From positions 480,001 through 544,000 of the forward strand of contig CAVTRC010000001.1 of the NCBI GenBank assembly GCA_963737065.1: 64,000 nt of DNA, written 5' to 3'. The notes beneath the pieces are model-generated. The model saw only the letters and a list, made by a program, of their open reading frames with translations. It did no database searches and was not told the DNA's origin. The position numbers and the translations under genes were made by a program. Shown here piece by piece: positions 15,601-21,536 of the stretch; within the stretch, counting starts at the first letter, position 1, and every line of letters begins with the position of its first letter. This DNA is from Candidatus Eremiobacteria bacterium. Lineage in GTDB: Bacteria > Vulcanimicrobiota > Vulcanimicrobiia > Vulcanimicrobiales > Vulcanimicrobiaceae.

Positions 15601-16116
15601 TTACGATCGGAACCCGGCGCGCGGCGATTCATGCTGGTGCGCGAGCGCAACGAGCGACGCGGCGGCCATGGCCGCGAAATACCCTTTATCGCCTCGCTTG
15701 GGGTCGGCACGCTCAGCTGCCTGTTCCATGTTTTCCGTCGTCAACACGCCGAATCCGATCGGAACGTTGGTGGAAAGTTGCACCGCCATGATTCCGCGAG
15801 CGCATTCGCCCGCGACAAAATCGAAGTGCGGCGTTTCGCCTCGGACGATGGCGCCGAGCGCCACGACGCCGTCCACGTTGTCTTTCGCAATGATGCACTT
15901 CGATGCGAGGGGAAGCTCAAAACAACCCGGCACGTCGTAGACCAGAATGTCGGCGGGCTTTACCCCACACTCGGCGAGCGCATGTTGCGCGCCTTCTACG
16001 AGCAAATCGCTGAGCTCGCGATAGAACCGCGCAGCGATGATTGCAAACCGTTTTCCGGTGCAATCCGGCGCGGGCGAAGCGTTGGTACTTCCGTTCTGTC
16101 CGCTCCGCGGCTTCAC
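15601..16116 (-). CDS. ribH: 6,7-dimethyl-8-ribityllumazine synthase
   Basis: VPGCFELP, LGAIVRGETPHFDFVA, FGVLTT, DKG; overlaps the ribBA stop. Confidence 0.96.
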   Translation of the reverse strand: MKPRSGQNGSTNASPAPDCTGKRFAIIAARFYRELSDLLVEGAQHALAECGVKPADILVYDVPGCFELPLASKCIIAKDNVDGVVALGAIVRGETPHFDFVAGECARGIMAVQLSTNVPIGFGVLTTENMEQAAERADPKRGDKGYFAAMAAASLVALAHQHESPRAGFRS

Positions 16117-17525
16117 GAAGCGACCGTCTCGTCGAACATGTGGCCGAGTTTGGCGCGCTTTGTCGCCATGTACCGCTTGTTGTGGACGGTCGGCTGCGTT
16201 TGCATCGGCACGCGCCCGACGATCGTCAACCCGTAGCCCTCCAGCCCAAAGATCTTGCGCGGATTGTTCGTGATCAACCGCATCTCTTTGATGCCGATAT
16301 CGGCAAGAATCTGCGAGCCGATACCGTAGTCGCGCTTATCGATCGGAAGTCCAAGCGCGACATTCGCTTCCACGGTGTCGGCGCCGCGATCTTGCAACTC
16401 GTAGGCGCGCAGCTTGTTGGCAAGTCCGATGCCGCGTCCTTCTTGCCGTAGATACAGAAAGACTCCGCGGCCTTCTTTCGCGATCATCGTCATCGCGCCG
16501 TCGCGCTGCGCGGCGCAATCGCAGCGAACCGATTGCAAAGCGTCGCCGGTCAAACACTCGGAGTGCACGCGCACCAACACGTCTTTGCCGTCGCTGATGT
16601 CTCCCATGACGAGCGCGACATGCGTATTGCCGTCGATTGTCGTTTCGTAAGCGACGCCTCTCCAATCGCCCGTCGTCGAAGGCAGCGTGAATTCGGCAAC
16701 TTTTCTTACGAGTTTTTCCGTGCGCATCCGATAGGCGATGAGGTCCTTCACGGTGATCAGCTTAAGGCCGTGGCGATCGGCATACTTGCGTAACCCCTCT
16801 AGACGCTCCATCGTTCCGTCTTCCGCCATGATTTCGCAGATGACGCCGGCCGGGTACAGTCCCGCGAGGCGCGCGAGATCGATCGACGCCTCGGTCTGTC
16901 CTGCCCTCACGAGCACGCCGCCGTCACGCGCGCGCAACGGAAACGTGTGACCGGGGCGCAAGAAATCGGTGGATGTCGCATTTGGATCGATCAGTTTTTT
17001 GATCGTCGCCGCACGATCGTGCGCTGAGATTCCGGTGGTCGTAACGCCGCGAGCTTCTACGGATACGGTAAATGCCGTCTCGTGGACAGCCGTATTTTCA
17101 TTGACCATTTGCGGAATCTGCAGTTGGTCGAGGCGCGTGCCGACCATCGGCACGCAGATGAGGCCCCCGGCCTCCTTGCGCATGAAGTTGATTGCGTCCG
17201 CGCTAACCATCTGTGCCGCCATAACGAGGTCGCCTTCGTTCTCGCGGTCCTCATCGTCGAGCACGACGACCATCTTCCCGGCGCGGACATCATCGACGGC
17301 GTCTTCGATGGAATCGAACTCGCTCTCAGGCTCTTGATCGGCCGACGGCGCGAGTTCGGGCAGCACGTTGGTGAGGCGCCGCAAGGTTCCGTACGACGGT
17401 TCTCTGCGGCCCGAACGCAGAAGCGACACAGCCGATTCCGTCACCCCTGAACGCTGGGCAAGCTCCACTGCGGAAAGACCCGCCGCATCCATCGCAGCGT
17501 TAAGGGCGTCGGCGAACAGACTCAT
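16113..17525 (-). CDS. ribBA: Bifunctional DHBP synthase / GTP cyclohydrolase II with N-terminal XRE-family HTH
   Basis: DDEDRENEGDL, TTGISAHDR, RPGHTFPL, RVHSECLTGD, RCDC, QEGRGIGL, TNNPRK; first ~58 aa are a Cro/C1-type HTH (LSAVELAQRSGVTESAVSLLRSGRREPS). Confidence 0.94.
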   Translation of the reverse strand: MSLFADALNAAMDAAGLSAVELAQRSGVTESAVSLLRSGRREPSYGTLRRLTNVLPELAPSADQEPESEFDSIEDAVDDVRAGKMVVVLDDEDRENEGDLVMAAQMVSADAINFMRKEAGGLICVPMVGTRLDQLQIPQMVNENTAVHETAFTVSVEARGVTTTGISAHDRAATIKKLIDPNATSTDFLRPGHTFPLRARDGGVLVRAGQTEASIDLARLAGLYPAGVICEIMAEDGTMERLEGLRKYADRHGLKLITVKDLIAYRMRTEKLVRKVAEFTLPSTTGDWRGVAYETTIDGNTHVALVMGDISDGKDVLVRVHSECLTGDALQSVRCDCAAQRDGAMTMIAKEGRGVFLYLRQEGRGIGLANKLRAYELQDRGADTVEANVALGLPIDKRDYGIGSQILADIGIKEMRLITNNPRKIFGLEGYGLTIVGRVPMQTQPTVHNKRYMATKRAKLGHMFDETVAS

Positions 17526-17531
17526 CTCCCC

Positions 17532-17562
17532 ACGGTATGGCGCCGACTTGACAAATGTCAAG
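17532..17562 (-). promoter_or_regulatory. Sigma70-type leaderless promoter of ribBA overlapped by a palindromic operator
   Basis: Minus strand TTGACA-N18-TACCGT-N6-ATG; inverted repeat CTTGACA-AA-TGTCAAG at 17547-17562. Confidence 0.7.
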
Positions 17563-17746: not shown

Positions 17747-18032
17747 CTGCCTAGGATCACGCGACTGTATTAGGACCAAAACAATGAGGACCCATTTATG
17801 GGAGCGCCGGGTCAGTCCGGAAGACGTAGAGGAAATTCTGTTAGGATGCGACGGCGAGGAACCGACATACCGACAGCGCCGCGACAGCGACTACCTCGTT
17901 ATCTACGGAGAAACCGGAGGCGGAAGGTTACTTAAAATGGTCGGGGAGTTTCTGTCGGATGGGCACTTCAGGGTGTTCAGCGCGATCGACATGGACGACG
18001 ACGAGCGTCGAGCGTATAGAAGGGGGAAATAG
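17747..18032 (+). pseudogene. BrnT/RelE-superfamily toxin, 5' end disrupted
   Basis: Reconstruction LPRITRLY*DQNNED/HLWERRVSPEDVEEILLG...YLVIYGETGGGRLL...FRVFSAIDMDDDERRAYRRGK; TAG at 17771, extra C near 17792, CTG where a start is expected. Confidence 0.65.
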
Positions 18033-18039
18033 CAGCATC

Positions 18040-18288
18040 ATGGCAGCTGCGGGAAAGAAATCGCATGAACGGATGCTTCGGGAGCTTGAAAGATCGCAAA
18101 GCCACGAGATCGCTAACGCTGAGATCGTAACCGGGGAGCGTGGCGGAAGTGCTCCATTTTCGGTTCGCCTTAGTGCGCCGCTCCTTGAGCGACTTGATCG
18201 TATAGCGCGGCGTGAGAACCGCAAGCGCGGGAATCTAATTCAACACATTTTGTGGGAGTATGTTAGAGCCAGCGAAATGGACGCATAA
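18040..18288 (+). CDS. Ribbon-helix-helix (CopG-like) antitoxin
   Basis: FSVRLSAPLLERLDRIARRENRKRGNLIQHILWEYV; 7 nt downstream of the toxin stop. Confidence 0.8.
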   Translation: MAAAGKKSHERMLRELERSQSHEIANAEIVTGERGGSAPFSVRLSAPLLERLDRIARRENRKRGNLIQHILWEYVRASEMDA

Positions 18289-18795: not shown

Positions 18796-19242
18796 TTACC
18801 TGAGCGTTTGAACGAGCGCTTTGCGCAACTCCTGGGGCAACGGGCGGCTCTTCTTCGTCTCACGATCCATGCACGCGACGGTCAGCGACATTACGGCTGT
18901 CGCATGCTGCGTACGTTCATTGAAAATGACGGTCTTCCAGCGTACGCTCGAACCGCCGACCTTCTCGAGATGCGTGCGCATGCGAAGCCAATCGCCCATC
19001 AGCGCGGGCGCGTGATACTCCGCTTCGGCACGTACGCGCGGCAACCAAAAGTCGAGTTCATCGAAGATCCGCTCATACGGAAATCCGAGTTCGCGGAACA
19101 TTTCCATTTCAGCGTATTCCGCGAACCGCCAGTACGTCGGAAAGTACATGATGCCGGCGATATCGACATCCGCCCATTGCACCGGTAATCGGGCTTCGAA
19201 AACGCGCGCGTTTTCCGGCAGTGTGTCTTTGAATCGCGTCAC
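18796..19242 (-). CDS. Hotdog-fold acyl-CoA thioesterase (4HBT/YbgC family)
   Basis: VQWADVDIAGIMYFPTYWRFAE, AEYHAPA, SRPLPQELR; GTG start overlaps the ribE stop. Confidence 0.9.
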   Translation of the reverse strand: MTRFKDTLPENARVFEARLPVQWADVDIAGIMYFPTYWRFAEYAEMEMFRELGFPYERIFDELDFWLPRVRAEAEYHAPALMGDWLRMRTHLEKVGGSSVRWKTVIFNERTQHATAVMSLTVACMDRETKKSRPLPQELRKALVQTLR

Positions 19243-19853
19243 GCGTTCGCGTCCTTCGACAAGCTCAGGATGACACTTGCGGCGTAGCGCGCCAGCGGGT
19301 CGGCTTCGAGGTTGACCAGCGATCCCGCAACGCGATCCGCGAGAGTCGTGCGCGCCAGTGTTTCGGGAATGAGTGCCAATTCGAACCACCCGTCGCCGGC
19401 GCCCGCAACCGTCAGGCTCACGCCGTCGACTGCGATGAACGCTTTGTCGACGATCATTGGTGCAAGCGACGGCGGGCGCTCGACGCGCAGGCGTTCGCCT
19501 TGACCTTCCGGCGCGCGCGAAAGCACGTGCGCCGTAGCGTCGACGTGACCGTACACGAAGTGGCCACCGATTCGATCGCCGACGCGCAGCGAGTATTCCA
19601 GGTTCACTCGATCGCCTGGCTCCAATGCATCGAAATTGCTCCGTGCGATCGTTTCTGGAACCACGTCGAAACGAAGGCATTCGCCTTCAATCGCCGTGAC
19701 CGTCAAACACACGCCGTTGACTGCGATCGAATCTTTGACTGCCGGCTTCTCGTTTGCGACGCCCTCACATGCGAGGACGAGCGTCATCCCGCCGTTTGCG
19801 AGCCGCTCGCGTGACACGAGCGTTCCGCGGTAACTGATCAGTCCACTAAACAT
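19239..19853 (-). CDS. ribE: Riboflavin synthase (alpha chain)
   Basis: [48 protein letters not shown]. Confidence 0.96.
19251..19275. repeat. Single REP-like unit embedded in the ribE 3' end
   Basis: GTCCTTCGACAAGCTCAGGATGACA, translating as VILSLSKD / CHPELVEG, which I recognise as a widespread REP-like repeat. Confidence 0.55.
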
Positions 19854-20937
19854 CGAAAAGCCCGCTTATCACAACGTCACAGCCGATCTGGTCCATGCGG
19901 TCGAACCGCAACCTGCGCCGCAGCGTCGCAAGGTCGGCCCCGGCGAGTACCGGCACCGCAGCCGGTGCCGTCAATAGCACCGGTGCAATTGCCCAATAGA
20001 AGCGGTCGACGATGCGGGCTGCAATCGTCCTCGCAGCGAGCGTCGGTCCGCCTTCGCAGAGGACGCTTTGCACGCCGCGCTCACGCAGCGCGATCACGGC
20101 GTCGCGCAAGTTTAATTGCGACTCGTCGGCACTGCCTACAAACACGACGTCGGCAACTCCGCGCAGATTCGCAAAACGCTCCCGCGCGCCGTTCGGCGCG
20201 AGCACGATCGTCGTTGCATAGCCTTCGATGGGGGCGAATACGCGGCTGTGCTCCGAAACGCTGTCCGTTTCGCAGGCGATGATACGTTTGAACGGCTGCA
20301 GACGATGCGACGGCGGCCGCACGGTCAACTGCGGATCGTCGACACGCACCGTTCCCGCGCCGACCATGATTGCATCGTACGCGATGCGCAGATCGCGAAC
20401 GTAGAGGCGCTCTTCTTCACTCGTGATCCACTCTTGCACGCCGGGTTGCGACGTGATCCGTCCATCGAGCGACATCGCCATCTTTAGTGCGACGAACGGA
20501 CGGTCATGCGTTACCGCGTACGCAAAGGGCTCGATCAACTGGTGCGCTCGCGGCTCGTCGACGAGCTCGATTGCAATGCCGGCCTCGCGCAGCGCGTCGA
20601 TTCCGCCGCCGCTGGTCTTCGGATTCGGATCCCGCGTACCGATCACGACGCGCGCAACACCCGCTTCAATCAATGCGCGCGAACACGCCGGCGTCCGTCC
20701 GATATGGTTGCACGGTTCGAGTGTGACGTACACCGTTGCCCCGCGCGCGTCACCGGCTTGCGTCAGCGCGTTCGCTTCGGCATGCGGGTCGCCCGCGCGG
20801 TGATGATAGCCCTCACCGATGACGCGGCCGTCGCGCACGACGATCGAACCGACCGCCGGATTCGGTGACGTTGACCCAATGCCACGAGCCGCGAGTTCGA
20901 ACGCGCGGTCGAAGAAGAGCTGGTCGAGCGGACTCAC
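19846..20937 (-). CDS. ribD: Riboflavin deaminase/reductase
   Basis: [52 protein letters not shown] start overlaps the comF stop. Confidence 0.96.
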
Positions 20938-21536
20938 GCCCTCCCGTTCGCGACGGCGATAACGAATGCTTTTGCAACGCGAGCGCCGGCCGCGCGCAAC
21001 ACGCCGGCACAATCTTCCAACGTCGCGCCGGTCGTGCACACATCGTCGACAAGCGTCACCGCAACATCGTCGACGAGATCGCTCGGGCAAAGGAAGCGTC
21101 CGCGTGCCGAAAGCCGCTCGATTCGGTTGCGGCCGCGTTGCGTCTCGCGCGCGATGCAGGTCAGCACCGACAGCGTTGCGGCACCCGCGCGGATGCCCGC
21201 CACGCTCGAGATGAGCTCGATACCGTCGAAACCGCGAACGCGCCGGCGCGCGGCCGTTGTCGGAACGGGCACGAGCACATCATCCGGCCGAATCATCGCC
21301 GCCATCCGGGACGCGAGCGCCTCAGCCACGTCGCGCCGTCCGTCTTTCAACGCGTGCACGGCCGAACGCAACGGCCCTATGAAGTCGCCGAGCGCTACGA
21401 CATCGAGCGTGGCTAAACGGCGCTCGACGAACGGCGCGCGGAACGGCACGCACGCCTCGCACAATCCGCTGCCTTGTTTCATGCAGCCCGCGCACTGCTC
21501 GGGGAAGAGAACATCGATGAGCCGGTGGTACATCAC
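20934..21536 (-). CDS. comF: ComF family phosphoribosyltransferase-like protein
   Basis: LFPEQCAGC...[24 protein letters not shown]. Confidence 0.88.

Follow-up and report, generated by a model that had tools for sequence, protein, structure and literature searches.

The HTH-RibBA locus

The stretch of DNA analysed here (the window, 64,000 nucleotides (nt) of contig CAVTRC010000001.1 from a Candidatus Eremiobacteria bacterium, phylum Vulcanimicrobiota) carries on its minus strand a gene in which the riboflavin enzyme RibBA is preceded, within one reading frame, by a helix-turn-helix (HTH) domain of the XRE (xenobiotic response element) type; directly before this HTH-RibBA gene lies a palindrome that shares sequence with the predicted promoter. 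The frame runs uninterrupted from an ATG at 17525-17523 to a stop at 16115-16113 and encodes 470 amino acids (aa). A preliminary description of the window had reported a Cro/C1-type HTH of ~58 aa in frame with RibBA, and the 470-aa frame, with Pfam matches above the cut-offs, bears this out. But what is such a domain doing on a metabolic enzyme? Is the enzyme half expected to work? Is the head really translated? And is the palindrome its operator? The features that these questions turn on are the following.

16113..17525, minus strand: coding sequence of HTH-RibBA, 470 aa plus stop (open reading frame, translation, Pfam, NCBIfam NF006803)
17352..17525, minus strand: XRE-type HTH domain, residues 1-58 (Pfam HTH_3/HTH_31, AlphaFold2 (AF2), Foldseek, codon-position diversity)
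17310..17351, minus strand: variable linker of low confidence, about residues 59-72 (predicted local distance difference test (pLDDT), gapped alignments)
16731..17306, minus strand: 3,4-dihydroxy-2-butanone 4-phosphate (DHBP) synthase (RibB) domain (PF00926; single copy in the genome; aligned to Protein Data Bank (PDB) entry 4i14)
16206..16703, minus strand: guanosine triphosphate (GTP) cyclohydrolase II (RibA) domain (PF00925; single copy in the genome)
17547..17562, no strand assigned: candidate operator CTTGACA-TT-TGTCAAG (conserved position; matrix score 31.4 bits)
17556..17561, minus strand: -35-like hexamer TTGACA, equal to the palindrome's left arm (sequence; conserved in relatives)
17532..17537, minus strand: -10-like hexamer TACCGT, of the TANNNT type (18 nt after the -35, 6 nt before the ATG)
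15601..16116, minus strand: ribH, lumazine synthase (Pfam DMRL_synthase), second gene of the putative controlled unit

An enzyme half predicted to work

The C-terminal ~400 residues make up the RibBA part of the fusion protein. Pfam places DHBP_synthase at residues 74-265 (288 bits) and GTP_cyclohydro2 at residues 275-440 (233 bits), both above the curated cut-offs, and the NCBIfam RibBA equivalog NF006803 scores 617.5 bits over residues 66-466, where the cut-off is 569. Residues 69-463 can be aligned along their full length to the canonical RibBA of M. tuberculosis (RibA2, PDB 4i14; E = 3e-138), whereas nothing in that protein matches residues 1-68, for which a sequence search of PDB chains returned only weak matches, to 434 repressor-type domains. 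C324, C335, C337, the acidic loop D90-D99, H193 and T211-E212, which we take to bind zinc or to act in catalysis, do not vary among 57 fusion proteins and match 4i14, and the earlier claim of a catalytically intact RibBA stands as a prediction from these residues. Searches of the whole genome (3.08 Mb, 95% complete) gave one match for DHBP synthase and one for GTP cyclohydrolase II, in both cases the HTH-RibBA gene, and ribD, ribE and ribH are intact by Pfam. Because the gene is the sole RibA and RibB of a genome that keeps ribD, ribE and ribH, its content implies that the enzyme half should work. In four relatives (G011, G013, G170, G183) the ribBA match comes in two pieces, in different frames or on different contigs; a frameshift, a break in the assembly or a natural division of the enzyme into its halves may lie behind this.

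A translated XRE head

The HTH assignment comes from two Pfam families, HTH_3 at residues 10-55 (31.5 bits, cut-off 23) and HTH_31 (30.5 bits, cut-off 27), whose matches together span residues 4-55. The AF2 model shows a head of four helices (residues 3-15, 19-26, 30-38 and 45-54, the third being the recognition helix) with a pLDDT of 81-91 across residues 1-40 of the full-length protein; modelled as a domain only, the head reaches 83.8, and its helices 84-93. The linker falls below 50 at residues 61-67 and is variable and gapped in the alignments. Most of the head's fold neighbours in the PDB are XRE DNA-binding domains (Foldseek; query template-modelling score (TMq) 0.64-0.80, probability 1.00), among them RghR, C.BclI, SinR, CapH, ClgR, HigA, DdrO, P22 c2 and 434 Cro.

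Could translation begin after the HTH, leaving the head as untranslated DNA? This had been raised as a possible refutation, and it is not plausible. The next methionine after the start is residue 85, inside the DHBP synthase domain, and there is no start codon between head and enzyme. Across HTH codons 4-56 of 44 loci, nucleotide diversity amounts to 0.30, 0.19 and 0.57 for the first, second and third codon position, a coding pattern. G27, A32, S34, L36, R37, G39, R41, P43 and S44 are invariant in the 57 fusion proteins, and the recognition helix is nearly invariant in their alignments. Judged by this coding-type diversity and these invariant residues, the head is translated and under selection.

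Where did the head come from? A profile search with it over 1.84 billion representatives brought up pieces of this very fusion as well as repeat proteins with several HTHs; of 150 matches listed 16 were checked, and none of these was recognised as another enzyme fused to the head. By tblastn, in a search limited to the fetched loci of HTH-less relatives, no stand-alone ancestor of the head was found beside rib genes.

Distribution of the fusion

A search with residues 1-75 found 123 proteins, and among the matches listed all 120 of 120 combine an HTH family with DHBP_synthase, 119 of them also with GTP cyclohydrolase II; their source names point to Vulcanimicrobiota or 'Candidatus' metagenome-assembled genomes. 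The relatives fall into three groups, f1 being the same family, f2 the sister family in the same order and f3 a third family in the same class. Across 40 relatives the head is present in 24 of 24 f1 and 5 of 5 f2 genomes, some on split contigs, and in none of the 11 of f3, so the worry that the fusion might be unique to this assembly is laid to rest.

A phylum-wide sample gave a RibBA match in 163 of 201 genomes, about 110 of which carry the fusion. Among its listed rows the f1 matches begin at query residue 1-4 except in G058, where a contig end cuts the gene, and in G110, G178 and G165, three f1 genomes that are genuinely without the head. In f3 (15 of 15 genomes) and in other classes the match begins near residue 50-70. 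Since nearly all sampled f1 and f2 genomes carry the head while f3 and the other classes do not, the fusion is, on these alignments, a mark of one order (uncultured bacteria of soil type) and not of the whole phylum. A quick RibBA tree of 38 rows, which left out four duplicate loci and two loci from unpublished genomes and in which two rows are labelled HTH-less merely because their contigs end there, has an unresolved base, and the order of gain and loss is not readable from it. One f3 genome seemed to offer a fusion, with a match to residues 24-277; this candidate was rejected as a stand-alone ribB plus read-through of non-coding DNA. The f3 genome G201 has such a second, stand-alone ribB (L072, 216 aa), with a Shine-Dalgarno-type leader and no HTH.

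A palindrome that travels with the fusion

The palindrome at 17547-17562 reads CTTGACAAATGTCAAG on the plus strand and CTTGACATTTGTCAAG in the direction of the gene. Its perfect 7-bp arms and the -35 hexamer within it are present as originally claimed. All 24 of the 24 fusion loci first fetched have a site of the form TT[G/T/A]AC[A/G]-NN-[T/C]GTNAA, always equally far ahead of the start codon; this count includes L018 from an unpublished genome (G014) and becomes 23 of 23 without it, which is one reservation about the case for an operator. A 22-bp matrix was built from these first 24 sites and tested on 20 genera outside the matrix set. In 20 of 20 the site is the best match of a 601-bp stretch, at -29 to -39 from residue 1 and with scores of 12.4-31.4 bits; the core pattern is exact in 17 of the 20 and has one mismatch in each of the remaining three.

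How specific is this to ribBA? In all 3.08 Mb of the genome no more than 49 positions score above 12 bits, and the ribBA site scores 31.4 bits against 18.8 for the next best. TTGACA occurs 424 times in the genome and is followed by NN-TGT-N-AA only at the ribBA site, which counts once on each strand. Of the HTH-less loci, 13 complete ones, the fronts of ribD-ribE-ribBA operons included, were scanned along with one fusion locus truncated by its contig end; no match exceeded 10 bits except one of 10.8 bits. Palindrome and fusion thus co-occur; a palindrome not conserved with the fusion had been named as a possible refutation. In G110, where the head is lost, a promoter TTGACA-N17-TAGCCT-N6-ATG is kept and the right arm is gone. 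Conversely, in two fusion genomes without TTGACA the palindromes are nevertheless perfect and in register (TTTAC..GTAAA and GTTAAC..GTTAAC), so the symmetry is kept apart from the -35 box. From these alignments the symmetric family consensus is read as TTnACA-NN-TGTnAA; in the left arm the -35 box fixes the otherwise free position as G. A trigger enzyme should leave in genomes an operator that lies before a gene of its pathway and is conserved along with the fusion, and a candidate of this kind is what is found here.

Some further sites deserve mention. The loose pattern TTGACRNNYGTNAA is too permissive for site searches. With a strict motif, extra hits in HTH-less genomes were considered and rejected, as they are not linked to rib genes and lie in the promoters of an ArsR-type operon and a Fur-like gene: L045 and L046 (f3 genomes G037 and G033) have perfect TTGACA-NN-TGTCAA palindromes in promoters of ArsR-type regulator/arsenic-type operons, and L049 (G010) has a similar look-alike before a Fur-like gene unrelated to ribBA. 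In two genera (L008 and L009, genomes G015 and G012) a second, longer palindrome with 13-bp arms is shared ~20-60 nt upstream of the candidate ribBA operator. At three other places in fusion genomes (L022, L024 and G020:C7:61118) the main site is preceded, 30-95 nt upstream, by another that resembles it and may serve as an auxiliary operator.

An apparently leaderless promoter

In gene direction the promoter reads TTGACA (17561-17556), 18 nt, TACCGT (17537-17532), GGGGAG and ATG, the layout given in the preliminary description. A TANNNT hexamer follows the first hexamer by 16-19 nt in 36 of 44 fusion loci, and in 29 of these 36 the start codon comes exactly 6 nt after it (5-9 nt in the other 7). 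Leaderless genes are recognised by a -10 box ~6-7 nt before the start codon with no Shine-Dalgarno spacing, as is seen here. Because such a fixed spacing from -10 to start codon marks leaderless transcripts, the promoter is predicted to give, apparently, a leaderless one. The -35 hexamer is a perfect TTGACA in most fusion loci.

The rib cluster and the reach of control

The GTG of ribH overlaps the stop of ribBA (GTGA), and in 24 of 24 fusion loci ribH is the gene after ribBA. Fusion genomes are usually arranged as ribD-ribE-(YbgC/FadM-type thioesterase)-site-HTH-ribBA-ribH, those of f3 as ribD-ribE-ribBA-ribH with no gap. In the window, ribBA is separated from ribD-ribE by a pair of small genes on the opposite strand (17784-18288). 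As this pair splits the cluster, ribBA-ribH probably depends on its own promoter. Since the genome has only one such site, control would, by the matrix scan, reach ribBA-ribH only. A wider regulon was considered and rejected: the next-best matches (18.8 bits and below) lie mostly inside long open frames and are judged to be chance.

As to the neighbours themselves, the minus strand at 18796-21536 carries a comF-like gene, ribD, ribE and a YbgC/FadM-type acyl-CoA thioesterase gene chained by GTGA overlaps; the overlap of ribD with comF, pointed out earlier, is the GTG of ribD over the comF-like stop (GTGA). Of the 24 fusion loci, 9 have the thioesterase gene in the position between ribE and HTH-ribBA; none of the f3 loci does. 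The two small plus-strand genes at 17784-18288 overlap each other; no family matches the first, the second encodes a ribbon-helix-helix domain faintly similar to the BrnA antitoxin, and from these features the pair looks toxin-antitoxin-like. In two loci of the same genus (L004, L007) the thioesterase gene is ~200-450 bp from ribBA, too close for a pair of this type. Outside the window, the second-best intergenic operator-like site of the genome (C1:449251 of G000, 18.6 bits) lies ~70 nt before the gene of a small secreted protein with no evident link.

A proposed mechanism

How could an enzyme of riboflavin synthesis control its own gene? Our preferred reading, which we consider likely, is that HTH-RibBA is bifunctional: besides its catalysis, it would bind the palindrome with its two heads and so repress the ribBA-ribH promoter from which it is itself expressed. 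The N-terminal XRE domain of 58 residues would sit on a flexible linker of ~15 residues before the cell's sole RibBA, which is predicted to catalyse both entry reactions of riboflavin synthesis, one as GTP cyclohydrolase II and the other as DHBP synthase. By homology to solved RibBA/DHBP synthase structures (4i14 has two chains), RibBA should be a dimer, and the dimer would pair the two heads and so present them together. The paired heads would contact both arms of the 14-16-bp palindrome TTnACA-NN-TGTnAA. For a transcript that begins at the ATG, the site would span about -37 to -22, over the -35 hexamer and part of the spacer, and its occupancy should keep RNA polymerase off the promoter; because of this exclusion the enzyme would repress its own ribBA-ribH transcript, a negative autoregulation. 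It is from sequence and homology that we infer DNA binding, repression rather than activation, and the dimeric mode. A more tentative step would make RibBA the flavin-pathway sensor of the order, with the occupancy of its active sites setting the grip of the heads on the operator; GTP, ribulose-5-phosphate, a product or a downstream flavin are the candidate ligands, and we would call such sensing possible but rather doubtful.

Several observations weigh against the proposal that the enzyme represses its own promoter. Palindromes with perfect 7-bp arms and a 2-bp spacer are frequent in the window (15, against a mean of 5 in shuffles), so that the palindrome by itself is not beyond chance; it is put beyond chance by its conservation across the relatives, as far as alignments can tell. 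These relatives are akin to each other, and the counts overstate their independence. The left arm is what a -35 box would conserve anyway, which leaves the right arm as the only independent evidence. No covariation of the recognition helix with operator variants was seen in the alignment. Two enzymes, HppE (1zz6) and cyanase (6xgt), are also among the fold neighbours of the head in Foldseek, and since XRE-like domains of some enzymes are not known to bind DNA, a role away from DNA stays conceivable. An E. coli-type promoter scan makes no call at ribBA because TACCGT matches TATAAT at only 3 of 6 positions. The fronts of ribD and ribE are without an operator site in the matrix scan, so only part of the pathway would be controlled.

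What about the flavin mononucleotide (FMN) riboswitch, the usual control of bacterial rib operons? The window has no Rfam family at threshold except two tRNAs, and the FMN riboswitch family RF00050 has no match in the whole 3.08-Mb genome; nor does it in 41 relatives or in 141 phylum-sample genomes, in searches that used stricter filters and scored a subset of candidates, and that detect the element in 7 control genomes. It had been argued from the tight spacing at ribBA that there is no room for a riboswitch. The room is indeed lacking, but the argument is weak: no FMN riboswitch was found either in the relatives that lack the HTH, namely f3, three f1 genomes and other classes, or in the rest of the phylum, a further point against our proposal. 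Since HTH-less lineages lack the riboswitch too, the head is not a necessary replacement for it.

Which other explanations could account for the fusion and its palindrome? A mis-assembled or mis-started gene, with the HTH as a separate small gene or untranslated, is practically negligible, being refuted at the level of sequence by one unbroken frame in more than 100 genomes from many assemblies, by the coding-type substitutions and by the missing start codon between head and enzyme domain. The head could instead be a structural, oligomerisation or protein-contact module that does not bind DNA, the palindrome then belonging to the promoter or serving some other factor. Precedents would be HppE and cyanase, enzymes whose XRE-like domains are modules of this kind and are not known to bind DNA, and such a module would explain both the lack of helix-site covariation and the identity of the left arm with the -35 box. 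Against it, the right arm is found in 44 of 44 fusion loci (with one mismatch each in three held-out sites), follows TTGACA nowhere else in the genome and is gone where the head is gone, even in G110 with its promoter kept; perfect palindromes survive the loss of TTGACA; and residues of the recognition helix are invariant. G110, the palindromes without TTGACA and the uniqueness within the genome argue that the right arm is more than promoter sequence. A head without a DNA-binding role seems unlikely.

Might the head bind the palindrome and activate, recruiting RNA polymerase where the promoter itself is weak? Measured against the E. coli consensus the -10 hexamer is poor, and the fold neighbours include activators of the XRE family, ClgR and C-proteins among them. 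The perfect TTGACA of most loci, however, makes an activator seem unneeded; a site centred near -29.5, over the -35 and the spacer, would be in the usual place for steric repression; and a self-activating enzyme would send a cofactor pathway into runaway positive feedback. Activation is thus quite improbable. A last explanation keeps the repression and drops the ligand, with HTH-RibBA holding its own level constant and sensing no metabolite. This would suit a single site per genome, on the own promoter, a protein in which Pfam finds no extra sensor domain, and a regulon that leaves out ribD and ribE. On the other hand, a phylum without a detected FMN riboswitch has an unfilled need for flavin feedback, and the known enzyme-repressor fusions RbkR, BirA and NadR are ligand-gated according to PMC5397151; ligand-free control is conceivable, if not what we would bet on. 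Autorepression of ribBA-ribH by the head is the reading that we retain.

Relation to known systems

HTH-RibBA shares its fold and a weak sequence likeness with repressors of the XRE/Cro-C1 type (434 repressor/Cro, P22 c2, SinR, ClgR, DdrO, C-proteins), which are dimers on short palindromes. It differs from them in its partner: they are stand-alone proteins with their own dimerisation parts, whereas the partner here is a two-domain enzyme. The FMN riboswitch (RFN element, RF00050) fills a role that HTH-RibBA may partly take over, but it is built of RNA and senses FMN directly, and the RF00050 searches place the present locus outside the rib operons under its control. Among bacterial enzymes with a regulatory head, BirA and PutA use DNA-binding folds other than XRE.

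Rodionova et al. (2017, PMC5397151) list BirA, NadR and PutA as bacterial trigger enzymes, and going by this paper HTH-RibBA is like them in joining a DNA-binding domain at the N-terminus to a functional metabolic enzyme and in repressing genes of the pathway to which that enzyme belongs (activity and repression are predictions for HTH-RibBA); they differ in that none acts in riboflavin synthesis and that their ligands and mechanisms are known. The same paper describes the closest parallel, the archaeal RbkR, a riboflavin kinase fused to a winged HTH that autoregulates and whose DNA binding responds to cytidine triphosphate (CTP) and FMN. Both proteins join an enzyme of the riboflavin pathway to an N-terminal DNA-binding domain, both have lineage-specific palindromic operators and control riboflavin genes together with their own gene (predicted for HTH-RibBA), and both occur in hosts without FMN riboswitches. 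As far as this account goes, the differences are just as clear: a CTP-dependent kinase in place of RibBA, a winged helix in place of XRE, Archaea in place of Bacteria, and several operons in place of a single site; and RbkR is validated by experiment, including the CTP and FMN effects, whereas regulation by HTH-RibBA is predicted from sequence. In HTH-RibBA Pfam finds only HTH_3/HTH_31, DHBP_synthase, GTP_cyclohydro2 and a sub-threshold DUF7553, and by this domain content it is an analogue and not a member of the RbkR family. No description of an HTH-RibBA fusion was found in the full-text literature, with subscription journals outside coverage, and a term search of a 2026 riboflavin review gave no occurrence of XRE, HTH or RbkR.

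Significance

The comparative genomics of HTH-RibBA is solid, and its regulatory function is predicted. Bacterial riboflavin synthesis is a textbook case of riboswitch control, and a protein regulator built into RibBA would, if true, be a second solution. It would run parallel to RbkR from an independent origin, with another enzyme and another DNA-binding fold. If the sensor reading is true as well, this would be the first protein-based feedback on bacterial riboflavin synthesis at its committed steps, and a single polypeptide would do the job of the FMN riboswitch in a phylum where none was found. The system is compact, with one protein, one 16-bp site and one promoter, and could show how the state of an enzyme is coupled to transcription; the natural losses of the head in G110, G165 and G178 are ready-made comparison cases. 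For a phylum that is mostly uncultured, it also says something about gene control and about a promoter type that is apparently leaderless.

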